The notes below the pieces were generated by a model, which saw only the letters and a program-made list of their open reading frames with translations, did no database searches and was not told the origin of the DNA. From an uncultured candidate division Zixibacteria bacterium (lineage in GTDB: Bacteria; Zixibacteria; MSB-5A5; SM1-73): a DNA stretch of 64,000 nucleotides. Location of the stretch: NCBI GenBank assembly GCA_903908285.1, contig CAIVRH010000023.1, positions 25,052 to 89,051 of the forward strand, read 5' to 3'. The stretch's first letter is position 1. The number at the start of each line of letters is the position of its first letter. Below, in pieces: positions 5,779-64,000 of the stretch. Both the position numbers and the translations under genes were made by a program.

Positions 5779-7299
5779 ATGAGCAAAAACATATCCCTGG
5801 TGCAATCGAACGGTAAAGGCGATTCTCACTTCAGAGAATATGTGTTTATCGTTTGTGCCGGGCTTTTAGTTTTTTCACCTAGCTTATTTAACTTCTTCAA
5901 CTCGGATGACTTCGCGTGGATAAGTCGCGGGGCTAATCTATCTTTGAAGGATTTGCTGCATAATGCCGAAAGCGTAAGCTATAATAGATTTCGTCCATTG
6001 GTTCCAGTTTTTTTCGCCATTTTATACCGATTATTCGGATTGTCTCCCTGGGGATATCATTTCTGCAGTATAACACTACATGTATTCAATGCTCTGCTAT
6101 TCTATCGCTTAGTTTTACATCTCTTTCTTAACAAAGAGATCGCTTTTCTATCCGCTGTAATATTTGTCACCCATTTTGCTCATGAGGAAACGGTTTTCTG
6201 GATATCCAGCAATTGTATCCTATGTTGCTGGTTTTTTTCCCTGTCATCTCTTTTAGGCTTTATAAAATGGTTAAAAAGCGGAAATAGCTGGTTTTATTTT
6301 CTATCCCTGGGTTTGGTCACCATGGCATTCTTTTTCAGGGAGGACGCATTGATTTTACCTTTGATTCTCTTACTGATTATTGGATTTAGGTTTTCACGAT
6401 CAAATCGAGAGACTGCCAAGAACTTCAATCGCAGCTCATTGTCAAAGACCATACTAAGTCTGGTACCATATTTCCTCTTGATACCTATCTATCTGTATCT
6501 GAGAAGAATTTGCTTCCCACATCTTCAATTTATTGGGCTTTTGTCTTTTAATCCCATCAATTTATTAAGAAACTCTGTTTATTTCATTCTTAATCTTACA
6601 TTCCCGGTGAGACTAATTTTCGATGTGCTGGGATATCAACATTCTGGAACAATAAATCTCATGGTTAACAGTATCCGCTCTGACTGGATAATGGCCATAG
6701 CCGGTCTATTGGTAGTAGCATTTTCGGTTCTGGTTTTCTGGTTGTGGTTAAAAAAGGGGAGCAGGGTTTTGAAGCAATTGACCATGGTGTTTATTCTTTT
6801 CCTTTCGCCAAGTCTTCTCACCATAGGATATGGGCTCAGATTCACCTATATGCCTCTATTGGGATTCGCCCCGTTGGCAACTTATTTTATACTTTACCTA
6901 GTTAAACAAGCCAATAAAAAGAAACTAATGTTAGGAAGACATTATATGATTATGCTTATACTCGTAATTTTAGTTTTCAATTTCCTTATTTCATTTGAGC
7001 GACAGCAGTGGTGGAGAGAAACAGGAGGTATCTGCCAGAAAACAATAGCCCAAGCGGGAACGGTCTTGTCATCTCTGCCTGAAGGCTCAACCGTCTGCTT
7101 CCAGGATTTGCCCACCCGATTACATGGTGCTTACATTTTCAACAACGGCTTTATTGAGGCTATGAATTTATATTATCCCTCGTATAACCAGGCGATAGCC
7201 ATAGGAGACAGCAGTAGTCCTTGTTTACAGGATAAAGAGGTGGGGAAAAATCAGCATGGATTCAAATATGACAACGGTGGATTTTTTCAGTTATTTTAA
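5779..7299 (+). CDS. polytopic membrane protein, GT-C-fold glycosyltransferase-like (PMT/ArnT-like)
   Basis: >10 predicted TM helices. Acidic loop motif NSDDFAW after TM1 and FFREDALILP as in GT-C (PMT/ArnT/YfhO-type) enzymes. Family assignment is tentative. Confidence 0.4.
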   Translation: MSKNISLVQSNGKGDSHFREYVFIVCAGLLVFSPSLFNFFNSDDFAWISRGANLSLKDLLHNAESVSYNRFRPLVPVFFAILYRLFGLSPWGYHFCSITLHVFNALLFYRLVLHLFLNKEIAFLSAVIFVTHFAHEETVFWISSNCILCCWFFSLSSLLGFIKWLKSGNSWFYFLSLGLVTMAFFFREDALILPLILLLIIGFRFSRSNRETAKNFNRSSLSKTILSLVPYFLLIPIYLYLRRICFPHLQFIGLLSFNPINLLRNSVYFILNLTFPVRLIFDVLGYQHSGTINLMVNSIRSDWIMAIAGLLVVAFSVLVFWLWLKKGSRVLKQLTMVFILFLSPSLLTIGYGLRFTYMPLLGFAPLATYFILYLVKQANKKKLMLGRHYMIMLILVILVFNFLISFERQQWWRETGGICQKTIAQAGTVLSSLPEGSTVCFQDLPTRLHGAYIFNNGFIEAMNLYYPSYNQAIAIGDSSSPCLQDKEVGKNQHGFKYDNGGFFQLF

Positions 7300-7403: not shown

Positions 7404-8342
7404 ATGAGAGTTAAGGATGTTAAGAGGAGAATAGAAAAAGCAAATACGCTCTTAAAAGAGTGCATAGTCTGTCCCCGCAAGTGCAAGGTTAACCGGCTGA
7501 AGGGGGAGATCGGATTCTGCGGGATAGGTTCAAATCCCCGGGTGGCAAGCTATAATGTCCATCATGGGGAGGAGCCGCCTATTTCCGGGACCAAAGGATC
7601 GGGGACCATATTTTTCTCAGGCTGTAATTTGAGATGCTTGTATTGCCAGAATTTTCCCATCAGTCAGATAAGACATGGAAAGGAGATCGGAACAGAGGAA
7701 TTGGCAGATATGATGCTTTATCTCCAGTCCAAGGGGTGTCATAACATCAACTTCGTAACCCCTTCACACGTAGTTCCCCAAATCATCCAAGCCCTCTCTT
7801 TCGCCTGGGAGAAGGGATTTGAGCTTCCTTTGGTCTACAATACATCCGGATACGACAGTCTCCAATCCCTGCAACTTTTAGATGGGATAATCGATATATA
7901 TCTTCCGGATATGCGGTATTCAGACAACTCTGCCGCAAAACAGCTGTCTGGGGTGGATGACTATGTAGAGGTGAACCGGAGAGCAATAAAAGAGATGTAT
8001 CGGCAGGTGGGGAATCTGGTTGCCGGCGATAACGGCATCGCTCAAAAAGGATTGATCATACGGCATCTGATCTTGCCCAATAATTTAGCGGGAAGCGAAA
8101 AGACTTTCAAATTCATCCGTCAGGAAATTTCCGAGGAAGCTTATTTGAGTCTTTTGGGTCAATATTTCCCCAGCTTTAAAGCAGGGGAATGCGTATTAAT
8201 AGACAGGAAAATTACCCCGGTGGAATATGAATCTGCAGTGGAGAGCTTTTTTGAGTCGGGCTTGAGCCGGGGATGGATGCAGGACAGTTCGGTTTCGCCT
8301 GAAATCCCCAAAGCGAAATCGAAGAGAAGGAACCGGGCATGA
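7404..8342 (+). CDS. radical SAM protein, PflX/YjjW-like (putative activating enzyme)
   Basis: CNLRCLYCQN radical-SAM CxxxCxxC cluster with an N-terminal extra Cys-rich stretch (CPRKCKVN...FCG) typical of PflX-family activases. Confidence 0.6.
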   Translation: MRVKDVKRRIEKANTLLKECIVCPRKCKVNRLKGEIGFCGIGSNPRVASYNVHHGEEPPISGTKGSGTIFFSGCNLRCLYCQNFPISQIRHGKEIGTEELADMMLYLQSKGCHNINFVTPSHVVPQIIQALSFAWEKGFELPLVYNTSGYDSLQSLQLLDGIIDIYLPDMRYSDNSAAKQLSGVDDYVEVNRRAIKEMYRQVGNLVAGDNGIAQKGLIIRHLILPNNLAGSEKTFKFIRQEISEEAYLSLLGQYFPSFKAGECVLIDRKITPVEYESAVESFFESGLSRGWMQDSSVSPEIPKAKSKRRNRA

Positions 8343-10435
8343 GTTTAAGCGCTTGGAAGTATAGAATAACTATTTTATGCATATCTTTTCTCCTGTTTGG
8401 ATGTGCTTATTACAATACCCTGTATAATGCTAACAGATACTTCAGGGAGGGGGAGAAAGCTCAAAAAGGCGCTTCGGCGACTAATCGGCAAAGCGCGGGC
8501 AGCGCGCAATATGAGAGTGCCATAAAGAAAGCTTCCAAGGTTTTGACCTTCTATCCCAAAAGCAAATGGGCCGATGACGCTTTGTTTCTTATCGGAAGAG
8601 CCTACTTCAATATGGGGGAAGACGTCAAAGCCAAAAGGAAATTCGAAGAGTTAACTCAAAGCTTCCCTAAAAGTAAATTCATAGATGATTCGAGATATTA
8701 TATCAGTATGTGTCAATACAACTTAGGAGAAGAAGATGAAGCGATAAGCTCTTTGAGCGAGCTTTTGGATTCGAAGAAGACGGACAAAAAAAGAAAAGGT
8801 CAGGCTTCCTTTTGGATCGGCGAGATGCAATTCAAAAAAGAAGAATATGAAGATGCTATAACCAATTATGAGAAAACGTTAAACGAATTTGATCCGGATA
8901 CTCTCTCTGCAGTCACTCAGTTTCGCATCGGAGAATGTTTCTTGGCAAAAAAAGATTATCTTAAAGCGCAGGAGGCTTTTGCCCAGGTGGAGAAGCGTGA
9001 TCCCTCTAAGGATCTTTTGTTCGATTCCAAATTCAAAGTGGGAGAATGTTGTTACTGGTTGAGCGAATATCAGAAAGGTATGGATATATATGTAGCGCTT
9101 TCCCAGGACAAAAAATTCAGCAGCAAGCTTGCCGATGTTAGTTTAAAGATGGCAGAGGGATATAATTTTCTGGACGAATTGTCCCTGGCTATGAGATGGT
9201 ATACCCAGGTTACCGAGACTTATCCCAGAACCGAGGCATCCGCCAATGCTTATTTTCAGTTGGGCAGGATATATCAGGAGAAATTCGGAGACTTGGCGGA
9301 AGCCAAAAAGATGTTTGAAACCTGCAAGAGTGAAAATGCAAATTCCCCCATCGCCAAGGAGGCTTTGACCCGGAGTGCCAATATCTCCAAAATCGAGGAA
9401 TATCAAAAGGATTTATCGCAGGAAGATTCGACTAAATCCAGTATCACCTTGTTTCTTTTGGCTGAACTATATCTATTACAGATGAATCAACCCGACTCTG
9501 CACTGGATGAGTATATGACTTTAGTGGAAAAGTTTCCTCAATCCGAATATGCCCCCAAATCCCTTTACGCGGCTGCCTGGATTTGGGAAAATGTTAAAAA
9601 GGACTCCCTTGAAGCAGAGAAGATATATCGCCGAATTTTAAGTGAGTATCCCCAATCGGAATATGGGAAAATAGCACTTAAGTTTTTATCCGAAACCGGA
9701 TCCATAGGATATGCCCAACCCGATTCTTCGGATACTCTCAATCCGGAGAAGATCTACCGGCAGTCGGAAAGGCTTCTGTTTGAGGAAAACGATGTTTATT
9801 CTGCTTTGACTTTATACGATCTGATCATCGAGAAGTTTCCTCGAAGCCCCTATGCAGCAAAATCTCTCTATGCCAAGGCTTGGACCACCGAACATTTTTT
9901 AAACCCTGAAGACAGTTCCGTGATTTTGGCTTATAAAGATGTGATCGACAAGTATCCGGATTCCCAATATGCCCAGGACGCTAAAATTAAATTGGGACTT
10001 GCCCAAAAGGCTCAACCTCCTCCTCCACCACCACCCCAGACTACACCAGCTTTAGCAGACACGGCAGACACCACACAAACAGCTGCGGCTGACACCTCCG
10101 GACCCCTGTTTCCAAAAGCACCAGATCCACCACTCAAAAGGGGTGTGTTTGTGTATCCGGAAGAAGAACGCCTTTCCGGCATAAAGGGAACGGTGGTGCT
10201 GAAGATTCAGATTGGATTTGACGGGCTGGTGAAAGAAGCCGAGGTGGTTAATTCGTTAGGGAATCTGTGGATAGATGAAGCGGCTAAGAAGGCAGCTTTG
10301 AACACCACCTTTGATACTCAAAAGATGGACCCAACCGCATTGGGGGGGTGGTTTCTATATCCGGTAGAGGTTAAATCGCCTGATGAACAACCAGCGGACC
10401 ATAACGCTGATCCAACCCAACAACAGGGACAGTGA
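8339..10435 (+). CDS. TPR-repeat lipoprotein with a Pro-rich linker and a C-terminal TonB-C-like domain
   Basis: Signal/lipobox (LLFGCAYY), multiple TPR-like units, PPPPPPPPQTTP linker, and a C-terminal GVFVYPEEERLSGIKGTVVLKIQIGFDG...NTTFDT consistent with the TonB C-terminal fold. Confidence 0.6.
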   Translation: MSLSAWKYRITILCISFLLFGCAYYNTLYNANRYFREGEKAQKGASATNRQSAGSAQYESAIKKASKVLTFYPKSKWADDALFLIGRAYFNMGEDVKAKRKFEELTQSFPKSKFIDDSRYYISMCQYNLGEEDEAISSLSELLDSKKTDKKRKGQASFWIGEMQFKKEEYEDAITNYEKTLNEFDPDTLSAVTQFRIGECFLAKKDYLKAQEAFAQVEKRDPSKDLLFDSKFKVGECCYWLSEYQKGMDIYVALSQDKKFSSKLADVSLKMAEGYNFLDELSLAMRWYTQVTETYPRTEASANAYFQLGRIYQEKFGDLAEAKKMFETCKSENANSPIAKEALTRSANISKIEEYQKDLSQEDSTKSSITLFLLAELYLLQMNQPDSALDEYMTLVEKFPQSEYAPKSLYAAAWIWENVKKDSLEAEKIYRRILSEYPQSEYGKIALKFLSETGSIGYAQPDSSDTLNPEKIYRQSERLLFEENDVYSALTLYDLIIEKFPRSPYAAKSLYAKAWTTEHFLNPEDSSVILAYKDVIDKYPDSQYAQDAKIKLGLAQKAQPPPPPPPQTTPALADTADTTQTAAADTSGPLFPKAPDPPLKRGVFVYPEEERLSGIKGTVVLKIQIGFDGLVKEAEVVNSLGNLWIDEAAKKAALNTTFDTQKMDPTALGGWFLYPVEVKSPDEQPADHNADPTQQQGQ

Positions 10436-18192: not shown

Positions 18193-18321
18193 TTGGCTCC
18201 TCCTTGTGATTTCTCTAATCCCCCTAAATCCCCCTTTAACAAAGGGGGATTAAAATCTTCCTTTTTACCTGAGACGGGATATATCATTGTGCCAACTTTT
18301 GACAACCAAATCCACAGATAA

Positions 18322-18358
18322 AAAAATACCCTTCCTCGGTTTTTCTGAGGAAGGGTAG
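18322..18358 (-). terminator. rho-independent terminator ending the 22585->18461 minus-strand operon
   Basis: aaaaaaataCCCTTCCTCggtttttctGAGGAAGGGtag: 9-bp GC-rich stem, with a T-run on the minus transcript. Confidence 0.65.
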
Positions 18359-18460
18359 TTATTTCAATTCGTATTATTTTCATTTTACCTTTTCTAGCTT
18401 CGCCGAACTAGATTAAAAGGCTCTTCGGTTGTACCTAATCTATTCAAGGATTCTTTCTTG

Positions 18461-39642: not shown

Positions 39643-40377
39643 ATGTTGAATAGGATCCGGTTCATTCTTAAACGGGCTATCCTAATGATGGCTTTGATCT
39701 TCCCTTCGTTACCTGTGGCAGCAGATAGCGGGGGAGCGAAGATATTTATGCCTGAGACAGTCTGGGAGTTCGGCAGGATTCCCGAAGGGAGCTTGGTTTC
39801 ACACGTTTTTCCGATTAAAAACGTGAGCACCGACACCTTGAAGATCACGGAGGTCAAGACCAACTGCGGCTGTGCCAGAGCTCCTTTGAACAAATGGGTG
39901 ATTGCTCCCGGCGACAGCGCGGAGATGGAGTTTGTCTTTGCGGCAGGCAGATACGAGGGGGAAGAAGTCAAAAGCGCCAGCATCGCCTTCAACGACACTT
40001 CACTGGGTAAAGTCAAAATCTACGTAGGCGGAAAGCTGGTGATGAATCTTGCCCATGCCATGCCCGTCACCATTTCACCGTACCGAGTCGATTTCGGCAG
40101 TCCAGAGGAGGGGAACGATAATAAACGGAAACTCCAGATAAGAAATGTAAGCCCAGCGGAAATTACAGTAGATATTTTGGACTATCCCAAAGATTGGGTC
40201 GAATTGGATTATTCCCGGATGGCGATCAAATCCGGAGATATGCAGGAGTTGGAGATCACTCTTAAAGGAGATAAAAGGGGAACCGGATTCCATAAATCCA
40301 TCACTTTGGAAATAAACGGAGAAAAAGAGTTCCGGTTTACCATCCCCCTGCTTAAAAAGATACTGCCGAAACCGTAA
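39643..40377 (+). CDS. secreted protein with two DUF1573 domains
   Basis: Signal peptide, FPIKNVSTDTLKITEVKTNCGCA (DUF1573 CGC signature) and a second repeat (LQIRNVSPAEITV). Confidence 0.7.
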   Translation: MLNRIRFILKRAILMMALIFPSLPVAADSGGAKIFMPETVWEFGRIPEGSLVSHVFPIKNVSTDTLKITEVKTNCGCARAPLNKWVIAPGDSAEMEFVFAAGRYEGEEVKSASIAFNDTSLGKVKIYVGGKLVMNLAHAMPVTISPYRVDFGSPEEGNDNKRKLQIRNVSPAEITVDILDYPKDWVELDYSRMAIKSGDMQELEITLKGDKRGTGFHKSITLEINGEKEFRFTIPLLKKILPKP

Positions 40378-40472
40378 AAGATTCGGGGAGGCAATGACGG
40401 GATTCGGTTATGTTGGGCAAGTTAAACAAAATAAATTGCAAATCTATTATTTTGATGTATATTTAATTTGAC

Positions 40473-40569
40473 GGAAGTGGATAGGATCTGGTGGTCCTTG
40501 CGGACTTCAAATCCGTCGTCCCTCCGGTTCTCCGGGGGGAGGTGGGTTCGATTCCCACCCCTTCCGCCA
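40473..40569 (+). tRNA. selC: tRNA-Sec (selC), anticodon UCA
   Basis: Hand-folded: acceptor GGAAGUG(G), 6-bp D-stem AGGAUC/GGUCCU with 4-nt loop (the Sec hallmark), anticodon stem GCGGA/UCCGU with loop CUUCAAA (UCA), long extra arm CCCUCCGGuucuCCGGGGGAGG, T-arm GUGGGuucgauuCCCAC, CCA encoded; 97 nt. Confidence 0.8.
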
Positions 40570-40651
40570 AAATATTTGTATGTTTCACTAATAGTTGAGT
40601 GGGGTAACAGAAAATTAGGTAAACCAATCCTTTCTCGGAAAGGAGAGAAGG

Positions 40652-40864
40652 ATGACTACGCGAACTTTCGCCGCAGTTCTGCACAAAGAAGAAGACATGT
40701 ATGTAGCGGAATGCCCGGAAGTAGGAACGGTAAGCCAGGGTCATACCGTCGAGGAAGCGATAGCCAACCTCAAAGAGGCGACGGAACTTTACTTAGAGGA
40801 ATTTCCACAAACCAAGATTGGAAAGCCAATACTTACCACGTTCGAGGTGGTAGGAAATGCGTGA
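40652..40864 (+). CDS. hicB: HicB-family antitoxin (UPF0150, short form)
   Basis: 70 aa ending ...TTFEVVGNA, similar to HicB/UPF0150 N-terminal domain proteins. Stop overlaps the hicA start. Confidence 0.6.
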   Translation: MTTRTFAAVLHKEEDMYVAECPEVGTVSQGHTVEEAIANLKEATELYLEEFPQTKIGKPILTTFEVVGNA

Positions 40865-41085
40865 GTTAAGAAAAATATCCGGGGAAGAAGCCATCAAAAT
40901 TCTGCAAAAACTCGGGTTTCAATTGGCAAGACAGCGGGGCAGTCATGTGGTTTAAAAAAAGCTGGCAAAAGAAGGAGAGGTCGGTTGTGTGGTTCCTCTT
41001 CATCGCGAGTTAAAAATCGGTACACTCAAAGGAATTCTTAAACAAGCAAAAATCACCTCAGAGGAATTCACAAGTCATCTCTAGG
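40857..41085 (+). pseudogene. hicA: hicA toxin gene interrupted by a frameshift in an A7 homopolymer
   Basis: Frame 1 reads MRELRKISGEEAIKILQKLGFQLARQRGSHVV* (stop 40953-55). The -1 frame continues KKLAKEGEVGCVVPLHRELKIGTLKGILKQAKITSEEFTSHL*. Joined, this gives a canonical HicA (GSH...VPxH...GTLxxILKQA). The shift lies in the run aaaaaaa at 40954-40960. Confidence 0.65.
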
Positions 41086-41163
41086 CTGAATCAAGAGCTT
41101 TGGGTATACATGGAAATTTAGTTTTCTGCGACAAGTAATATGGATTCAAAAGAAAAAATCAGA

Positions 41164-42189
41164 ATGACCAGCTTGGCCACCAGCTCGGGGTGAGCGGCGA
41201 AATGCGGTCCTGCGGACCTGGCTCAGGTGCTGAGCCATCTGCCCAAGCAAAATGATCCCAACGTGTTGGTGGGTTTCAATTCGGTGGACGATGCCGGAGT
41301 TTACAAAATCAGGGAGGATTTAGCCATAGTCCACACGGTGGATTTTTTTCCGCCCATTGTGGATGATCCTTACGATTTTGGCGCTATCTCAGCGGCTAAT
41401 TCCTTGAGTGACATCTATGCCATGGGAGGAAAGCCGATAACCGCTCTGAATATCGTGGGCTATCCTCCTCAAAGCGTGCCTCTATGGGCTTTGGAGGAGA
41501 TGCTCAAGGGGGGAGCGGAAAAAGCAATGGAAGCGGAAGTGTCCATAATCGGCGGTCATACTATCAGAACCAAAGAACCCATCTATGGGTTGGCAGTGGT
41601 GGGGACGATCCACCCGGATAGGATAATCAGCAATGCCGGTGCGAAAGCTGGTGATTCGCTGGTTTTGACCAAACCCATTGGTACGGGGATCATAACTACG
41701 GCCATAAAAAGGAATCTGGTTGAAGATGATATAGTGAAAAAAGTGGTGAAGATAATGGCTTTTTTGAATAGATACGCGTCTGAATCAATGCTGGATGTTG
41801 GAGCTAATGCTTGTACGGACATAACCGGTTTCGGTCTTCTGGGGCATCTATGCGAACTTTTACAAGCTTCTAAAGTAGGAGCAAAAATCCATCTTTCGAA
41901 TGTGCCGATAATCGAGCCCGCTTACCAGCTGGCACATGATAAAATTATTCCCGGCGGCACCTTGAGCAATCTGGAATTTATTGCCGAAAAGACCGACTGG
42001 AGTAAAGAAATTTCGGAAGAAGAGAAACTGATACTCTCCGATGCCCAGACTTCCGGGGGATTGCTCATCTCGTTACCAAAAGAAAAAGAAAAAAAGCTTT
42101 TGCAAATTCTGGCTGCCAAAGGGGTGTCCGGTGCAGTCATCGGTGAAATAATTGAGGACAAGAGATGCCGAATCCAAGTGGAAAATTAG
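41164..42189 (+). CDS. selD: selenide, water dikinase (selenophosphate synthetase) with in-frame UGA selenocysteine at codon 10
   Basis: ATG at 41164 is in frame with the track ORF (41227..42189). N-terminus MTSLATSSG-U(TGA 41191-93)-AAKCGPADLAQVLSH aligns with the SelD GxG(C/U)GCK...P..L..VL active-site loop. Hairpins GGUCCugcGGACC (41206-18) and GGCUCAGgugCUGAGCC (41219-35) lie 12-42 nt downstream, as expected for a bacterial SECIS. The rest is AIR-synthase-like. Confidence 0.75.
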
Positions 42190-43568
42190 TCAAAGAGAAA
42201 TTAAGACAGATACCCAGCGTGGAGAAAGTCCTGGAATCTTCCGAACTCCAAGCGGACATAGACAAATTCTCTCATACCCTGGTGGTATCCGCGATAAGGG
42301 AAGCCATAAAGACGACAAAGAGTGAAATAGCCAAAAGCAAAGAGACGGTTTCTCTTGACTCAATAATCGGGAAAACCAAGGATGTTCTCCGCGACCTGAC
42401 TTCATCTGCTCTACAGCCGGTGATCAATGTCACCGGAGTCATTCTTCATACCAACCTGGGCCGGGCACCCTTAGACGAGGGCGCTCTATCTTTTATTAAA
42501 GAAGTATGCGCCAATTATAACAACCTGGAGTTTGATCTAAGGGAAGGTAAAAGGAGCAAACGAGGGGTTTTTGTGGAAAAACTGCTTTGCCTTCTAACTT
42601 TATCCGAAGCCGCTTTGGTAGTCAATAATAATGCTGGCGCTGTGCTTTTGATCCTGACCGCTATGGCGAAAGAAAAAGAGGTGATTGTCTCCAGGGGGGA
42701 GTTAGTGCAGATCGGCGGGGGTTTTCGGATTCCGGAGATTCTCTCTTTAAGCGGAGCAACTCTAAAAGAAGTGGGAACCACAAATCATACCACCATCTCC
42801 GATTACGCCAGAGCCATAACCCGCCGGACCGCTCTTTTGCTCAAAGTTCACCAGAGCAATTTCAAAATGATCGGTTTTACGGAAAAGCCATGCATCCACG
42901 ATTTGGTTAAATTGGGGAAGAAGCATAAGCTGCCGGTAGTCGAGGATATGGGAAGCGGGGTTCTTCTCCGCACCGAGGATTTTCATTTGGCGCATGAACC
43001 TACCATGACGGAAGCCCTGTCCGCCGGTGCGGATTTGATCTGTTTTTCCGGAGACAAGCTTTTGGGTGCTCCGCAAGCGGGGATAATTTTGGGAAAAAGA
43101 AAATACATAGATATTCTTAAAAAACACCCCTTATATCGGGCTTTGAGATTAGACAAGATGTTCCTGGCGGGATTAGAAAGAATCCTGCTTTACTATCTAA
43201 AAGGCGAAGCCGCAAAGAAAATTCCGGTCTGGCAGATGATCGGTACTCCTGGGGAAGTTTTACAAGCCAGGGCGGAGAAAATAAAGGATAAGCTTAAAGA
43301 ATCGGGTATTGAAATTGTCATTAAGAGGAGTAACAGTACTATCGGTGGAGGATCGCTTCCCGGTGAGAGTTTGTCCACAGTTATACTATCCGTTGACAAA
43401 CCCTTTATCCCGGCTAATCAACAAGCCCAGCTTTTCAGAGAACAATCTTTGCCCATCATCGGACGGATAGAGGATCAGAAATTCGGGTTGGATTTAAGAA
43501 CCGTTTTTCCTCACCAGGATGAATTATTAATCTCCGCCATTAAAAACATTTTCCTTAAGAGAAGCTGA
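42165..43568 (+). CDS. selA: L-seryl-tRNA(Sec) selenium transferase (selenocysteine synthase)
   Basis: LRQIPSVEKVL N-terminus and INVTGVILHTNLGRAPL typical of SelA, PLP-fold, 467 aa, overlaps selD. Confidence 0.85.
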   Translation: MPNPSGKLVKEKLRQIPSVEKVLESSELQADIDKFSHTLVVSAIREAIKTTKSEIAKSKETVSLDSIIGKTKDVLRDLTSSALQPVINVTGVILHTNLGRAPLDEGALSFIKEVCANYNNLEFDLREGKRSKRGVFVEKLLCLLTLSEAALVVNNNAGAVLLILTAMAKEKEVIVSRGELVQIGGGFRIPEILSLSGATLKEVGTTNHTTISDYARAITRRTALLLKVHQSNFKMIGFTEKPCIHDLVKLGKKHKLPVVEDMGSGVLLRTEDFHLAHEPTMTEALSAGADLICFSGDKLLGAPQAGIILGKRKYIDILKKHPLYRALRLDKMFLAGLERILLYYLKGEAAKKIPVWQMIGTPGEVLQARAEKIKDKLKESGIEIVIKRSNSTIGGGSLPGESLSTVILSVDKPFIPANQQAQLFREQSLPIIGRIEDQKFGLDLRTVFPHQDELLISAIKNIFLKRS

Positions 43569-48622: not shown

Positions 48623-51028
48623 ATGACAAATAAAAAAGAACTGTCAGAACGAGATATTTGCACGCAATTCATCTTACCCGCTCTCATAAAGTCCGGGTGG
48701 GATGTCACAAAACAAATCCGCGAAGAGGTTTTTTTCACTGACGGGCGTATTTTTGTCAAAGGCAATAACACCGCACGTGGAGAGAGAAAACGTGCTGATT
48801 TTATTCTCTATCTAAAACCGAATATTCCTATCGCTGTAATTGAAGCAAAAGATAATAATCATTCCGTGGGGGCTGGGTTGCAGCAGGCATTAGGTTATGC
48901 GAAGCTTCTCGATGTCCCGGTTGCCTTTAGTTCAAATGGGGATGGTTTTATTCAGCATGATCTTTCTGGATTCTCTGCGGATATTGAAATAGAAATATCT
49001 TTAGACAATTTCCCTTCTCCATCCGAGCTGTGGAATATGTACAAGAAATATAAAAAGATTGAAACCCCTGAGCAGGAAAAGATCGCCTCCTATGAATACT
49101 TTTTTGATGGCTCAGGACGTGCGCCTCGTTACTATCAGCAGATAGCCATAAATAGAACGGTTGAAGCAATAGCACGTGGTGAGAACAGAGTTCTACTGGT
49201 AATGGCTACCGGCACGGGAAAAACCTATACCGCTTTTCAGATAATATATCGGCTATGGAAAAATGGAAGGAAGAAGCGGATTCTTTTTTTAGCAGATCGC
49301 AATGTGCTTATCGATCAAACCAAGCGAAATGACTTTAAACATTTTAAAGACCGTATGACGGTCATCAAAAAGAAAAAGATCGACAAGGCGTTTGAAATTT
49401 ACCTTGCCCTTTATCAGGGGTTAACGAATTACAATGAAGACAAAGATGCCTATAGAGAATTCAGCCGGGATTTCTTTGATCTTGTGGTTGTAGATGAGTG
49501 CCATCGTGGAAGCGCAGATGCTGATAGTGCTTGGAGAGCGATATTGGAGTATTTTAGCTCTGCTACTCAGATCGGGCTTACGGCAACTCCACGGGAAACA
49601 AAAGAAATTTCCAATATTGAATATTTCGGCGAGCCAATTTATACCTACACGCTTAAGCAAGGCATAGAGGACGGATTTTTGGCTCCCTATAAAGTTATAC
49701 GGGTTGGACTCAGTACCGACCTTGAAGGCTGGCGTCCCGAAGCAGGTAAAAAAGATCAGGATGGCAACGAGGTTGAAGATCGGGTTTACAACATTAAAGA
49801 TTTTGACAAGAACCTTGTGATTGATGAGCGGACAAAAATTGTTGCCAAGAAGGTGTCGGAGTATTTGAGGAAGACTAACCGTTTTGACAAAACGATAGTC
49901 TTTTGTGTGGATATTGAGCACGCCGAGCGCATGAAACAGGCGTTGGCGAATGAGAACCCGGATTTGGCGTTGGAAAACTACAAGTATATTATGCGAATAA
50001 CCGGTGATGATGAAGAAGGTAAGCGCGAAGTGGATAATTTCATAAATCCTGAAGAGCGTTATCCCGTCATCGCAACCACTTCAAAATTAATGACGACTGG
50101 CGTCGATGCGCAGACCTGCAAATTGATCGCACTTGATTCAAATATCAAATCGATGACTGAGTTTAAACAAATTATAGGCCGCGGAACTCGCATTAACGAA
50201 GACTATGACAAAACCTTTTTCGCCATCATGGATTTTCGTAATGTGACCGATCTTTTTGCTGATCCGGCTTTTGATGGCAACCCGGTTATGATCAAAGAGG
50301 TCAAAGGAGAAGAGGAGCTAACCGACCAAGATATTAATCCGGAAGGAGATCAGGAAATCATCGATCCGGAAACCGGTAAGCCTGTTGATTTTGAGAAGAA
50401 AGAAACAAAAGAATATCCGACTCAGCCGGAAATTATCCAGGGCGGTTCAATAGTATCCGAGCCTCGTTCAAAGGTTTATGTGGCAGGTGTAGATGTTTCG
50501 GTTCTAAACGAGCGGGTTCAGCATCTGGATGCGAACGGAAAACTCATTACAGAGAGCCTAAAAGATTACACAAAAAGGAGTATCTTGCAGGAGTTTCGCT
50601 CCCTTGATGATTTCCTTGCCAAGTGGAATAGCACTTATAAAAAGAAAGCCGTTATCGAGGAACTAGAATCGCACGGCATAATTTTTGAAAATCTTATGGC
50701 TGAAGTAAAGAAGGATTTAGATGTCTTTGACCTTATCTGCCATATTGCCTGGGATATGCCCGCGCTTACTCGCAGGGAGAGAGCAGAGAAGGTTAAAAAG
50801 CGCAATTACTTTACTAAATATGGTGAAAAAGCGCGCATCGTCATAGATGCTCTGTTGGATAAATATGCCAGCGAAGGTATTGAGAATATTGAGGATTTAT
50901 CGGTTTTAAGAATTTCCCCGTTTGATCAGATAGGCACTCCGACAGAAATCTTGCAGATTTTTGGAGGCAAAAAAGAATATTTACACGTTATTGAAAAATT
51001 AGAAAACGAACTATACGCGGCGGCATAA
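48623..51028 (+). CDS. hsdR: type I restriction enzyme R (endonuclease/helicase) subunit
   Basis: N-terminal HsdR nuclease domain (ILPALIKSGWD...ADFILY...IEAKD), DEAD-box helicase motifs (VMATGTGKTYTAFQI, VVDECHRG), 801 aa. Confidence 0.85.
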   Translation: MTNKKELSERDICTQFILPALIKSGWDVTKQIREEVFFTDGRIFVKGNNTARGERKRADFILYLKPNIPIAVIEAKDNNHSVGAGLQQALGYAKLLDVPVAFSSNGDGFIQHDLSGFSADIEIEISLDNFPSPSELWNMYKKYKKIETPEQEKIASYEYFFDGSGRAPRYYQQIAINRTVEAIARGENRVLLVMATGTGKTYTAFQIIYRLWKNGRKKRILFLADRNVLIDQTKRNDFKHFKDRMTVIKKKKIDKAFEIYLALYQGLTNYNEDKDAYREFSRDFFDLVVVDECHRGSADADSAWRAILEYFSSATQIGLTATPRETKEISNIEYFGEPIYTYTLKQGIEDGFLAPYKVIRVGLSTDLEGWRPEAGKKDQDGNEVEDRVYNIKDFDKNLVIDERTKIVAKKVSEYLRKTNRFDKTIVFCVDIEHAERMKQALANENPDLALENYKYIMRITGDDEEGKREVDNFINPEERYPVIATTSKLMTTGVDAQTCKLIALDSNIKSMTEFKQIIGRGTRINEDYDKTFFAIMDFRNVTDLFADPAFDGNPVMIKEVKGEEELTDQDINPEGDQEIIDPETGKPVDFEKKETKEYPTQPEIIQGGSIVSEPRSKVYVAGVDVSVLNERVQHLDANGKLITESLKDYTKRSILQEFRSLDDFLAKWNSTYKKKAVIEELESHGIIFENLMAEVKKDLDVFDLICHIAWDMPALTRRERAEKVKKRNYFTKYGEKARIVIDALLDKYASEGIENIEDLSVLRISPFDQIGTPTEILQIFGGKKEYLHVIEKLENELYAAA

Positions 51029-51031
51029 AAA

Positions 51032-52459
51032 ATGAAAAACATTGGTAATATTATCAAGACATTACAAAACATTATGCGCAAAGACCCCGGTGTTTCCGGT
51101 GATGCTCAGCGGATTGAACAACTAGGCTGGATGATTAGTCTCAAAATTTTGGACGATAGCGACAAACAGCAGAAGTTGATAAACGACAACTACATATCCC
51201 CTATACCAAAATATCTACAGTGGCGGAGCTGGGCGGGTGATGATGAAGGTATGACCGGAGAAGATCTTAAAGAATTTGTTGACGGCACGTTAATACCAAA
51301 GCTTAAAAATCTTGATGTGAGTTCTGGTAATAAACGCGCACTCATTATTCGTGAAATATTTGATGGCACGAACAACTATATGAAGAACGGTACCATCCTT
51401 CGCCAAGTCATAAACCAGCTCAACCAGATTGATTTCAACAGTTCCGAGGATCGTCACGTTTTTGGAGATATCTACGAAACGATTCTGAAAGACCTGCAGA
51501 GTGCCGGGAATTATGGAGAGTTTTACACTCCTCGCGCACTTACTGAGTTTATGACGGAAATGATTAACCCGCGACTGGGCGAAAAAGTATTAGACCCGGC
51601 ATGCGGTACAGGAGGATTCTTAACCAGCGCAATTGAGAACATCCGCAAGCAGGATGTTAAGGGTGTAAAGGACCTCAAAGAGCTTGAGAAGACCATCCAC
51701 GGGATGGAATTTAAGCCTCTGCCCTTTATGCTAAGCGTTACGAACCTTATTCTGCACGATATCGAAGTCCCTAATATTGATTATATAGACAGCTTAAATC
51801 GCGAATATACCTCAATTGGGCATAAGGATCGGGTTGATGTAATTCTTGCTAATCCACCGTTTGGTGCGTCTGTTACGGATGGTGCTGAAACAAATTTCCC
51901 TCAGAATTTCCGCACCACAGAAAGCGCCGATCTTTTCCTGATGCTGATGATTCGGTATTTGAGAGACGGTGGGCGTGCCGGGATTGTTCTTCCGGACGGT
52001 TCGCTTATGGGCGACGGCGTAAAACAGCGCATCCGCCAGCATTTATTGGAGAATTGCAATTTGCACACTATTGTCCGCTTACCGAATTCGGTTTTTCAGC
52101 CCTATGCCAGTGTTGCCACCAATTTGCTTTTCTTTGAGAAAGGTAAACCTACTAAAGAGATCTGGTATTGGGAGCATAAACTTCCTGAAGGAATGAAAGC
52201 ATACAGTAAAACGAAGCTCATTCAGAAAAATGAATTTGACGGACTTAAAAAGTGGTGGAAGAAGCGCAAAGAGAATAAGCAGGCGTGGAAGGTCTCGATT
52301 AAAACGATAGCGGAAAATGGATATAGCCTTGACATCAAGAATCCGCACACACCTGAAGAAGAACAATCTTATTCGAGCTCTGAGATTGTCTCCATGCTTC
52401 ACGATTCATTCCGCAAAAGTGACGAGCTTCTGGACAAGCTAAAGAAGGAGCTTAGTTAA
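51032..52459 (+). CDS. hsdM: type I restriction-modification N6-adenine DNA methyltransferase subunit
   Basis: HsdM N-terminal domain, SAM-binding LDPACGTGGFL, catalytic NPPFG. Confidence 0.9.
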   Translation: MKNIGNIIKTLQNIMRKDPGVSGDAQRIEQLGWMISLKILDDSDKQQKLINDNYISPIPKYLQWRSWAGDDEGMTGEDLKEFVDGTLIPKLKNLDVSSGNKRALIIREIFDGTNNYMKNGTILRQVINQLNQIDFNSSEDRHVFGDIYETILKDLQSAGNYGEFYTPRALTEFMTEMINPRLGEKVLDPACGTGGFLTSAIENIRKQDVKGVKDLKELEKTIHGMEFKPLPFMLSVTNLILHDIEVPNIDYIDSLNREYTSIGHKDRVDVILANPPFGASVTDGAETNFPQNFRTTESADLFLMLMIRYLRDGGRAGIVLPDGSLMGDGVKQRIRQHLLENCNLHTIVRLPNSVFQPYASVATNLLFFEKGKPTKEIWYWEHKLPEGMKAYSKTKLIQKNEFDGLKKWWKKRKENKQAWKVSIKTIAENGYSLDIKNPHTPEEEQSYSSSEIVSMLHDSFRKSDELLDKLKKELS

Positions 52460-53742
52460 TGGCTGAATGGAAGACAATCGATGAGCTTTTCGATTACGGA
52501 AAAGGGACTTTGCAAAGTTCAAAGTGCTCGCCCGGCAAATACACCTTTATTACTGCCGCTGAAGAGTGGAAGACTCATGAAATATTCACGCACGACTGTG
52601 AGGCTTTAATATTTGCCATGGCGGCCTCTGGTTCGCTGGGCAGGACGCACTATGTGAATGGGAAGTTTATCTCCAGCGACCTTTGTTTCATCCTTACCCC
52701 CAAGAAGGGATTGCGACTCGACCTGACCTTCTACTATCGTCTCTTCAACTTCCTGCGGGCTGATATAGTCAAAAAGACTGCGACAGGCACTTCAAAGCTG
52801 GCGATTAACCAGACAAATTTTGGAGCGTACAGACTTCCTTATTTTGAGTACGAGCACCAGCTAAGTTTTAGGGGCAAGATAGAGACCATAACAGGCATTA
52901 ATGAAGCGTTTTCTAAGGGGATGGACTATCAGTTATCCCTTCTTGCTAAACTTCGTCAGGCCATGTTGCAGGAAGCTATTGAAGGTAAGCTCACAGCCAA
53001 ATGGCAAAAGTATAATCCGGAATTGATCAGCGGTGAAAATCACGCCTCAAAGCTCCTTGAGAGAATCCGAGCTGAGAAAGACAGCCTCCTCAAGGAAGTC
53101 AAGGTACGTAAAGAGAAACCTCTTTCTCCCATCACTGATGACGAAAAACCCTTTATCCTACCCGAGGGATGGGCGTGGTGTCGGTTGGGGGAAATTGGAA
53201 GCACTAATATAGGGTTGACTTATTCGCCCAATGACATATCTGATTCTGGTATTCCTGTGCTCCGCTCCAATAATATCCAAAATGGAACTATTGATTTAAA
53301 TAATCTTGTCAGAGTAAAAATGGAAATTAACGGAAGCCAATATATTAGAAAAGGAGATATCTTAATTTGCGCCAGAAATGGCAGTAAAGCATTGGTTGGG
53401 AAAGCAGCTCAGATTAAAAACATATCTGAATCGATGGCTTTTGGTGCATTCATGGCAATTTTTAGGAGTAGGTATAATGGTTACATCGAAATATTTTTAC
53501 AGTCGCCTATTTTTAGAAGACTGCTAGATAAAGTTAATACAATGACTATTAATCAATTAACTCAAAGTAATCTAAAAAATACAATTATTCCGTTTCCGCC
53601 ATCTGATGAGCAACAAGCCATTGTTGAATGGGTAGATAAACTGAAGGCTGTGATCGACGAAATGGAAAAACAAGTCACCAAGCGCAAATACCAGTCCGAA
53701 ATGCTGATGCAGTCGGTCTTACGAGAGGCATTTGCGGGGTAA
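52459..53742 (+). CDS. hsdS: type I restriction-modification specificity subunit (two TRDs)
   Basis: Two target-recognition domains separated by the conserved coiled-coil spacer (LSLLAKLRQAMLQEAIEGKL...). C-terminal conserved repeat ...MLMQSVLREAF. ATGA overlap with hsdM. Confidence 0.85.
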   Translation: MAEWKTIDELFDYGKGTLQSSKCSPGKYTFITAAEEWKTHEIFTHDCEALIFAMAASGSLGRTHYVNGKFISSDLCFILTPKKGLRLDLTFYYRLFNFLRADIVKKTATGTSKLAINQTNFGAYRLPYFEYEHQLSFRGKIETITGINEAFSKGMDYQLSLLAKLRQAMLQEAIEGKLTAKWQKYNPELISGENHASKLLERIRAEKDSLLKEVKVRKEKPLSPITDDEKPFILPEGWAWCRLGEIGSTNIGLTYSPNDISDSGIPVLRSNNIQNGTIDLNNLVRVKMEINGSQYIRKGDILICARNGSKALVGKAAQIKNISESMAFGAFMAIFRSRYNGYIEIFLQSPIFRRLLDKVNTMTINQLTQSNLKNTIIPFPPSDEQQAIVEWVDKLKAVIDEMEKQVTKRKYQSEMLMQSVLREAFAG

Positions 53743-63302: not shown

Positions 63303-64000
63303 ATGATGCACCGATGTATGGTGGTTATTGCAACGGGGGTAATGGGTTTACTTCTTTGTACCGTTTTGTTAGCGAATGTTCCTAACCGGATAAATTATCA
63401 GGGTAAACTTACGACAGATGCCGGTGGATGTGTCAATGACACCGTCCAGATGATCTTTTCCATATACCCCGATACTCTGGGTTCTCCGGCCATATGGACC
63501 GAGACCCAATCACAGGTGTCGGTTAGGGAAGGGGTGTTTTCCGTTCTGTTGGGGGAGGCTGATTTCATACCGGCTTTTGTGTTTGACGGGAGCACCAGAT
63601 ACCTGGGCATTCGAGTTGAATCCGACCCGGAAATGAGACCTTTAAAACCCATGGTCAGCGTGGGATATGCATTCCATTCAACCACTGCAGATACGGCGTT
63701 TAATATAACTTCAAACGGGCTGACAGGTATTGACAGCGTATTCAATCCGGGGGGCAATGTGGATCTGATTCCCGGCAACGCTATTACAGTTACTCCGGAT
63801 GACAGTGGTAACTCCATTACCATCGGAGAGACTCATTCGGAGAGAACGGACAATCCGCATAAGGTAACGGCATCGCAAACCGGCGCCCTGGTGAGTGTGG
63901 AAGGGATTAACCATCCGGGTGGAGATATCGATTTAGTGGAGGGTGCCAATATGACCATTACCCGCGATACTTCCGCAAAAACCATAACTTTCACCGCTGC
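63303..64000 (+). CDS. 5' part of a large secreted repeat protein (continues beyond the window)
   Basis: Open frame from ATG 63303 to the window end, absent from the track because it has no stop. N-terminal TM/signal (MVVIATGVMGLLLCTVLLA), conserved INYQGKLTDAGG...W.E...V.V..GVFSVLLGE N-terminal module common in FCB-group giant proteins, then ~30-aa repeats (...GGNVDLIPGNAITVTPD..., ...GGDIDLVEGANMTITRD...). Confidence 0.55.
   Translation, partial: MMHRCMVVIATGVMGLLLCTVLLANVPNRINYQGKLTTDAGGCVNDTVQMIFSIYPDTLGSPAIWTETQSQVSVREGVFSVLLGEADFIPAFVFDGSTRYLGIRVESDPEMRPLKPMVSVGYAFHSTTADTAFNITSNGLTGIDSVFNPGGNVDLIPGNAITVTPDDSGNSITIGETHSERTDNPHKVTASQTGALVSVEGINHPGGDIDLVEGANMTITRDTSAKTITFTA

Follow-up and report, generated by a model that had tools for sequence, protein, structure and literature searches.

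Introduction

Does a cluster of genes for selenocysteine (Sec) decoding with a toxin-antitoxin (TA) pair in its middle represent a mobile islet that was recently assembled beside a tRNA gene, or is it an old chromosomal locus in which accessory genes decay? This question is raised by positions 40473-43568 of a stretch of DNA from an uncultured Zixibacteria bacterium, termed the window in the following, which covers the final 64 kb of a metagenomic contig of 89 kb (ENA assembly ERZ1426812). The genes of this segment are all encoded on the plus strand in the order selC-hicB-hicA-selD(UGA)-selA. They encode the tRNA for Sec (tRNA-Sec), a HicB-like antitoxin, a HicA toxin, selenophosphate synthetase and L-seryl-tRNA(Sec) selenium transferase. 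With a probability of roughly 85%, the segment is a vertically inherited chromosomal Sec-decoding locus, in which the spacer between selC and selD carries the remnant of an accessory array. All elements described in an initial annotation of this DNA were recovered at their positions, far beyond what is expected by chance, and all of them belong to well-known families. The features are as follows.

40473-40569, plus strand: selC, tRNA-Sec, detected by ARAGORN and Rfam (RF01852), with UCA anticodon, discriminator G and an encoded CCA (40567-40569)
40652-40864, plus strand: hicB-like antitoxin gene, 70 aa, frame intact, with a HicB/UPF0150 fold only and no DNA-binding domain
40857-41084, plus strand: hicA toxin pseudogene, with an in-frame TAA at 40953-40955 (codon 33) in place of TTA (Leu)
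41140-42189, plus strand: selD, selenophosphate synthetase, 349 aa; the UGA at 41191-41193 (codon 18) specifies Sec
42165-43568, plus strand: selA, L-seryl-tRNA(Sec) selenium transferase, 467 aa, its first 25 nt shared with the end of selD

The selC-selD-selA core is conserved in Zixibacteria

Both proteins of the core were identified at the level of equivalogs. SelD matches TIGR00476 with 377.5 bits (equivalog cut-off 125) and NF002098 with 351 bits, and both of its domains, PF00586 (AIRS) and PF02769 (AIRS_C), were found. SelA, which had been placed directly after selD in the initial annotation, reaches 561.8 bits for TIGR00474 and is thereby well above the equivalog cut-off of 267.9; PF03841 and PF12390 were both matched, so that the N-terminal tRNA-binding domain is included. 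The in-frame TGA of selD, previously noted as a Sec codon, aligns with the catalytic Cys/Sec of solved structures. The motif SSG-U-AAKCGP corresponds to SSG-C-AAKVGP in the SelD chains of Aquifex aeolicus (2YYE/2ZOD), a near-exact match over the catalytic loop SSG-U-AAK-x-GP, and U18 and K21 align with Cys17 and Lys20 of E. coli SelD (3U0O). All 11 aligned Zixibacteria loci, with SelD proteins that share 55-96% identity, have retained the TGA together with the 17 codons in front of it and the motif A-[AS]-K-C-[GS]-P behind it.

The closest relatives of SelA, in a set with one genome per GTDB species, are encoded by metagenome-assembled genomes of Zixibacteria (55-76% identity). The related loci compared here number 13 (L001-L007, L087-L089, L100, L101/L102, which is the same locus as L003, and L103/L104). 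A tRNA-Sec gene lies upstream of selD(UGA)-selA in every compared locus that extends that far, and most loci have the same housekeeping genes further upstream, i.e., those for lipid-A acyltransferase, kdsD, kdsC, kdsA and an M49 peptidase. The core is thus kept phylum-wide between the same housekeeping neighbours, and for this reason the term islet, under which the locus was initially described, does not apply to it. The base composition across the region is unremarkable. In E. coli the Sec genes are scattered over the genome as selAB, selC and selD, whereas here they are clustered as selC-[spacer]-selD-selA. In comparison with the Sec machineries of E. coli and A. aeolicus the parts are the same, SelA and SelD even at equivalog level, and the chemistry would be the same as well. 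An apparent SelD-SelA fusion gene in L085 was rejected as an artefact, caused by a run of N in the scaffold.

The spacer between selC and selD

The part of the locus that differs between relatives is the spacer between selC and selD, and its contents are as follows.

Window: hicB and hicA (with nonsense codon); 572 bp
L089: hicB and intact hicA
L004: MBL hydrolase gene, hicB, intact hicA, a membrane protein gene and a TIR-wHTH protein gene
L100: hicB, PBECR2-like gene and DUF2283 gene
L103/L104: MBL gene, hicB and a gene of unknown function encoding 235 aa
L088: the same 235-aa gene as in L103/L104
L003: PBECR2-like gene and DUF2283 gene
L002: MBL gene and DUF2283 gene
L001: phd-like gene and parE
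L005: lipoprotein gene
L006, L007 and L087: empty

Over 13 loci the spacer is occupied by eight different gene combinations or by nothing, and the genes that are shared between lineages keep a fixed relative order, i.e., the spacers are co-linear mosaics. The initial annotation regarded selC as an integration hot-spot into which the TA pair had been wedged. The variable occupancy and the presence of TA and defence-type genes agree with this view, but the hallmarks of integration were not found. No integrase or recombinase is encoded in or near the spacer in any locus examined, and the 572-bp spacer of the window lacks any open reading frame of integrase size. A search around hicBA for a direct repeat of the tRNA 3' end yielded only short repeats expected by chance. 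Also, no compositional deviation was observed, as the GC content is 0.43-0.47 across hicBA compared to a mean of 0.445 for the window, and the GC skew does not differ from that of the surroundings.

In Enterobacteriaceae, genomic islands such as LEE and SHI-2 are associated with selC. The Zixibacteria loci share with these islands that accessory genes are located immediately downstream of selC and that the occupancy varies between related genomes. They differ from them in that an integrase, att direct repeats and a compositional signature are missing, that the cargo comprises only 0.1-4 kb and forms a co-linear mosaic, and that the divergence of hicB indicates old vertical inheritance. A recent site-specific insertion of hicBA beside selC, as a minimal remnant of an enterobacterial-type genomic island targeting tRNA genes, would agree with the exchange of spacer genes among relatives (phd/parE, PBECR2-like with DUF2283, MBL hydrolase, TIR protein), with the empty spacers of L006, L007 and L087, and with the similarity between the window and L004, which ends at the borders of the hicBA coding region. 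Such an insertion is nevertheless unlikely, given the lack of integrase, repeat and compositional signals, the fixed relative order of the cargo genes across lineages and the saturation of synonymous sites in hicB (pS 0.5-0.87) at high protein identity, which fits long vertical residence. The evidence rather favours that the spacer is an old resident accessory array that decays differentially. Since the synonymous sites of hicB are saturated and the gene is under strong purifying selection, hicB would have resided there over a long time of vertical inheritance while its neighbours were lost differentially.

A hicB-like antitoxin gene retained without a functional toxin

The hicB gene, of which the reading frame is intact, was assigned by profiles and structures of limited similarity. 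The Pfam matches to PF15919 and PF21748 are sub-threshold (23 bits compared to 27), no NCBIfam match was obtained, and the PDB matches are weak (2YZT with E=0.007; the HicB structures 6G1C/6G1N with E of about 0.2). Orthologues are present in L089, L004, L100 and L103/104 with 77-95% identity. Compared pairwise, the hicB copies share 74-93% protein identity, which is above that of SelD for the same genome pairs (68-83%). The proportion of non-synonymous differences (pN) is 0.03-0.12, compared to 0.5-0.87 for synonymous differences (pS). Together with the window, hicB is present in five lineages, three of which have no functional hicA. The gene therefore appears to be old and is under strong purifying selection, and it behaves as an orphan antitoxin. 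One further element was found upstream of it.

40628-40644, plus strand: perfect 7-bp palindrome TCCTTTC-TCG-GAAAGGA, overlapping the ribosome-binding region of hicB and recovered as a stem-loop in the scan

This palindrome may be an operator or an RNA hairpin; it is absent upstream of hicB in L004.

The arrangement resembles HicAB/HicBA type II TA modules in that a small gene of HicB fold overlaps the gene for HicA, a dsRBD-like RNase toxin, that covers the full Pfam model. The overlap of hicB and hicA amounts to 8 nt (ATGCGTGA), as it also does in L004 and L089. It differs from these modules in that the antitoxin comes first in the gene order, that HicB has only 70 aa and is devoid of a DNA-binding domain, and that the toxin gene carries a nonsense codon here and has been deleted in two other lineages, with hicB being retained under strong purifying selection. 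The initial annotation described a hicB-hicA module after selC; both genes are indeed present, but hicA is not intact; the TAA at codon 33 had been overlooked. HicA matches PF07927 with 67.9 bits over model positions 1-58 only if codon 33 is read as Leu. As it stands, the translation is interrupted by the stop, resulting in a product of 32 aa, while the intact hicA genes of L004 and L089 have TTA at this codon. The truncated HicA of 32 aa was called on nine independent contigs from several assemblies, and the stop is therefore real and fixed. Loss of hicA occurred independently three times, i.e., by TTA>TAA in the window and by deletion in L100 and in L103/104. HicA of the window lineage has eight private amino-acid changes compared to three in L089; this difference is not significant, and it suggests relaxed constraint on hicA of the window.

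It is very unlikely that hicBA still acts as a working TA system in which the N-terminal HicA fragment of 32 aa, or a C-terminal fragment formed by reinitiation, is toxic. The intact hicB under purifying selection would be in line with such a system, as would the GSH motif with the putative catalytic His, which precedes the stop. With the stop, however, over half of the 58 positions of the HicA domain are lost, the private changes suggest relaxed constraint, though not significantly, and hicB is equally conserved in L100 and L103/104, in which hicA is wholly absent, so that its conservation needs no toxin in cis. A different use of the retained gene would be that HicB was co-opted as a stable component of the selC-selD locus and is no longer just an antitoxin. 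It could, for example, modulate the expression of selD-selA, or it could shield tRNA-Sec or the mRNA carrying the Sec insertion sequence (SECIS) from HicA-type RNases encoded elsewhere. We regard this co-option as improbable; if true, it would explain the strong selection and the conservation above that of SelD in three lineages that independently lost hicA.

The tRNA-Sec fits a known 12-bp class

The initial annotation had called the selC product a bona fide tRNA-Sec with a 6-bp D-stem, a 4-nt D-loop, a long extra arm and a UCA anticodon, and the ARAGORN structure agrees with it in all these respects, with Rfam as a second, independent method that calls tRNA-Sec. ARAGORN made a single tRNA-SeC(tca) call (40472-40568), in which the 6-bp D-stem AGGAUC/GGUCCU encloses the 4-nt loop UGGU and the variable arm comprises 9 bp. 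The Rfam match to RF01852 (40473-40565) has 67.7 bits, with a gathering score of 47 and E=1.2e-11. A 6-bp D-stem with a 4-nt loop was described as a recognition element for SelA (PMC7609411). The discriminator G73, which is of seryl identity, is read in the sequence ...CUUCC-G-CCA at 40561-40569. Over 10 Zixibacteria loci the sequence of selC is nearly invariant, and the variable arm shows compensatory changes.

The tRNA departs from the canonical acceptor/T branch of 13 bp (8/5). Its 3' strand from the T-loop to G73 comprises 12 nt (CCCACCCCUUCC) compared to 13 nt in the E. coli and Firmicutes loci. For ARAGORN to arrive at 8/5, the non-conserved base -1 has to be paired with G73. Furthermore, position 6 (U or C) is opposite to C67, which constitutes a Y6-C67 mismatch that is conserved in the alignment of L001-L007, L087 and L088. 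Loci of Verrucomicrobia and Myxococcota (L020, L026, L032, L035, L041, L065, L067) likewise contain tRNA-Sec genes of the 12-nt design adjacent to selA. Bacterial tRNA-Sec species that have a branch of 12 bp (8/4-type) and a bulge at 51a were described for Actinobacteria and Chloroflexi (Mukai et al., NAR 2017, PMC5389517). In common with these, the selC tRNA has a branch that is 1 bp shorter than 8/5, the tRNA-Sec D-arm, the long variable arm, G73 and UCA; its structure, as deduced from sequence alone, differs by the conserved Y6-C67 mismatch and by the lack of a bulge in the T-stem. The selC tRNA thus appears to belong to this known minor class of 12-bp tRNA-Sec. The idea that the 12-bp tRNA-Sec is a novelty of Zixibacteria was rejected, as the same design is found in the Verrucomicrobia and Myxococcota loci and in the literature.

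It was considered whether selC might instead encode an opal suppressor that resembles tRNA-Sec, has a 12-bp branch (allo-tRNA or selC*-type) and decodes UGA as Ser or Cys. Among allo-tRNAs, an 8/4 branch combined with a tRNA-Sec-like D-arm does occur (PMC5389517), and the 3' strand of 12 instead of 13 nt and the conserved Y-C mismatch in the acceptor stem would suit them. Still, such a suppressor is hardly credible here, since the score for the Rfam tRNA-Sec model exceeds the gathering value by 20 bits, the D-arm contains the SelA recognition element (PMC7609411), the discriminator is G73 (Ser/Sec type) and not the U73 of selC* tRNA-Cys, and the gene is the sole tRNA-Sec-like gene found per examined locus, always beside selD(UGA)-selA. 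Moreover, the 12-nt design is shared with the selA-adjacent tRNA-Sec of Verrucomicrobia and Myxococcota, and 12-bp tRNA-Sec species have already been described. Despite the 12-bp branch the assignment as tRNA-Sec stands, since it agrees with the discriminator (G73), the 6/4 D-arm and the Rfam score as well as with the genomic context.

Upstream of selC, a promoter-like site was found in a consensus scan.

40436-40463, plus strand: promoter-like site TTGCAA-16 nt-TATATT just upstream of selC, with a putative promoter function

The TATATT box (40458-40463) ends 9 nt before G1 of the tRNA, and this distance is the same in L001-L003 and L005-L007, which suggests transcription of selC from its own promoter with a 5' leader that is very short or lacking. 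Overall, the scans for promoters and terminators gave only weak consensus matches.

Two observations on the selC genes of relatives were made. The tRNA-Sec of L004 (Zixibacteria bacterium SM1_73; 5792-5888) has a divergent 5' acceptor strand, UGUAGUGG compared to GGAAGYGG, which would add two mismatches; the gene may be damaged or affected by an assembly problem. A conserved motif of about 70 nt, 35-100 nt downstream of selC in sister lineages, was dismissed as a candidate element, as it does not occur in the window, matches no Rfam family and shows no consistent predicted fold. Its copies are:

L087:5848-5917, L088:5147-5215 and L001:162-230: the motif of about 70 nt
L001:864-920: weak second copy

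Decoding of UGA in selD and the predicted SECIS

A hairpin that is predicted to act as SECIS follows the UGA in selD.

41220-41236, plus strand: predicted SECIS hairpin GGCUCAG-GUG-CUGAGCC with apical loop at 41227-41229; a U-A pair 41219/41237 can extend it

Bacterial SECIS elements were described to have an apical loop of 3-9 nt with a G in the first two loop positions, an upper stem of 4-16 bp, a distance of 16-37 nt from the UGA and a minimum free energy of at most -7.5 kcal/mol (PMC13188914). The hairpin in selD lies within these limits with its 3-nt loop GUG, a stem of 7-8 bp, a spacing of 33 nt and -11.6 kcal/mol. In the alignment of 11 Zixibacteria loci, three pairs show compensatory double changes, with 13 cells altered on both sides, and none of 500 shuffles reaches the observed covariation. 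Of all cells, 95.5% are paired, compared to 21-39% in slid controls, and RNAalifold predicts the 41220-41236 helix. The stems of relatives read ACCCAG/CUGGGU, ACUCAG/CUGAGU or AUGCAG/CUGCAU, and while the encoded residues vary (A..S, T..G, T..S, M..H), the pairing is retained. Among more distant relatives, a strong hairpin follows the UGA in the two Sec-type SelD genes, which are near-identical over the stretch, and in the Cys-type genes a consistent hairpin is lacking. The loop of the selD hairpin is positioned near the upper limit of the spacing range. In E. coli fdhF the loop follows about 19 nt after its UGA.

A second hairpin at 41206-41218 was tried as SECIS and rejected: it shows no covariation, two of its pairs are broken in some relatives, and its -5.8 kcal/mol is above the limit of the model. 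Its loop has no G in L088 and none at its first two positions in L004 and L089. It is possible that this hairpin constitutes an accessory element, or part or the whole of the true SelB site.

Public gene calls on the source contig contain a SelD of 320 aa that starts at GTG 41227, inside the predicted SECIS loop. The deposited SelD thereby lacks the catalytic Sec loop. That these automated calls are right, i.e., that the TGA is a true stop, selD starts at GTG 41227 and the 17 upstream codons are non-coding, is very nearly untenable, as the protein would be truncated and without the catalytic Sec/Cys-x-x-Lys loop that has its aligned counterpart in solved SelD structures, as the 17 codons, TGA and frame are conserved in the 11 loci, as the GTG is the apical loop of a covarying hairpin and reads GTT in six relatives, so that it cannot be a conserved start, and as selD is flanked by a dedicated tRNA-Sec and selA.

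A probable location of selB elsewhere in the genome

The initial annotation had stated that selB lies outside the window, and this holds: a scan for GTPase motifs and tblastn with six Zixibacteria SelB proteins over the 64 kb gave nothing better than E=0.2. The 8.5 kb upstream of the window on the source contig, which contain ileS, divIVA and other genes, have no selB either. In L002-L007, L100, L101 and L103, selB directly follows selA, with an amidohydrolase gene next and in many cases also an EamA gene. In the window and its nearest relatives L001, L087 and L088, cmk-plsC-ispH-rpsA follow selA instead of selB. In the lineage of the window, selA and selB have thus evidently been separated by a rearrangement, with the breakpoint placed exactly between the two. 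Detachment of selB from selA also distinguishes this lineage from E. coli.

A search with a Zixibacterial SelB revealed two stand-alone selB genes, P0043 and P0058, which are 89% identical. Both are preceded by genes of a branched-chain-type ABC transporter and followed by the ancestral amidohydrolase-EamA pair. They were found in the assemblies ERZ1426812, ERZ1426824, ERZ18628254 and ERZ18628513, which also contain sequence of the window, with P0043 being present in ERZ1426812 itself and in ERZ18628254, where scaffold L081 is 100% identical to the window. The identities of P0043/P0058 to SelB of L002-L007 (74/74/67/58/58/55%) mirror the gradient of SelA of the window to the same loci (73/70/67/58/57/55%), and both candidates agree with the window in tetranucleotide signature, L105, the contig with P0043, having the highest correlation (0.977). 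P0058 had been considered as selB of this genome, and this was revised after P0043 turned up in the assembly that holds the window contig. The lineage of the window almost certainly keeps selB elsewhere, and P0043 (or P0058) would be the selB of this genome. The absence of selB from the rest of the genome had initially been named as a finding that would speak against the locus; as far as the data allow, the same assemblies do contain a stand-alone selB.

On contig L105, dnaK and grpE are separated by a ParE-toxin gene and the gene for an 85-aa partner (L105:19344-19854), which is another TA pair within a housekeeping operon of this lineage.

A model for Sec decoding and its weighing

The following sequence of steps is proposed. 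Transcription of selC would yield tRNA-Sec(UCA), which SerRS would charge with serine, as in the established bacterial pathway. SelA would convert Ser-tRNA-Sec to Sec-tRNA-Sec using the selenophosphate provided by SelD. SelB would bind to the hairpin in the selD mRNA and deliver Sec-tRNA-Sec at UGA codon 18. As SelD is itself a selenoprotein, its synthesis would depend on the pathway it feeds. The selB gene would act from its location elsewhere in the genome, downstream of the branched-chain-type ABC transporter genes and with its ancestral amidohydrolase and EamA neighbours. In the spacer, hicB is retained under strong purifying selection, and hicA has been killed by the single TTA>TAA change. 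We infer co-transcription of the genes of the locus as well as the present role of hicB.

Several points weigh against the reading as a vertically inherited Sec-decoding locus with a remnant accessory array, or against parts of it. The membership of hicB in its family is based on sub-threshold profile matches. The acceptor/T 3' strand of 12 nt and the conserved pyrimidine-C mismatch of the tRNA deviate from the canonical 8/5 fold. The weaker hairpin at 41206-41218 lies at a distance from the UGA that is more similar to that in E. coli, and the hairpins of the distant Sec-type SelD genes sit there; SelB binding at 41220-41236 and Sec insertion, which would follow from the predicted hairpin, are predictions of a sequence model. 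P0043 and P0058 were assigned via co-occurrence, composition and identity gradients and not via physical linkage, and, as they are 89% identical, at least one of them must originate from a sister population. Finally, a scan of the 64-kb window for in-frame TGA codons joining open segments gave selD as the only credible selenoprotein gene.

Further features of the window

Between the M49 peptidase gene and selC, a gene for a DUF1573/Ig-like secreted protein is encoded at 39643-40377. L002, L003, L087 and L088 lack it at this position, which indicates that a lineage-specific insertion is present also on the upstream side of selC. Downstream of rpsA, a complete type I restriction-modification system (hsdR, hsdM, hsdS) is encoded at 48623-53742, which was not found in the equivalent stretch of L001. 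At 18320-18424 on the minus strand, upstream of a minus-strand gene, Rfam reports a PyrR binding site with 55.8 bits (threshold 54). The last 285 bases of the window (63716-64000) are found again in the longer sister scaffold L081, about 700 bp further along (8202-8486). The contig end thus falls within a repeated segment of a large gene, and this probably caused the break in the assembly.

Implications

The current understanding of selenium biology and of TA systems is not changed by any of these findings. For SelD, they provide a predicted SECIS, supported by covariation, with an unusually long spacing from the UGA, and the error that truncates SelD in the public annotation has probably been made in relatives as well. 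The spacer offers a clean natural example of TA decay, in which the toxin was lost three times and the antitoxin was retained under selection. For the phylum, Zixibacteria are documented to have the complete Sec-decoding trait, with selC-[spacer]-selD-selA-selB as the ancestral order.

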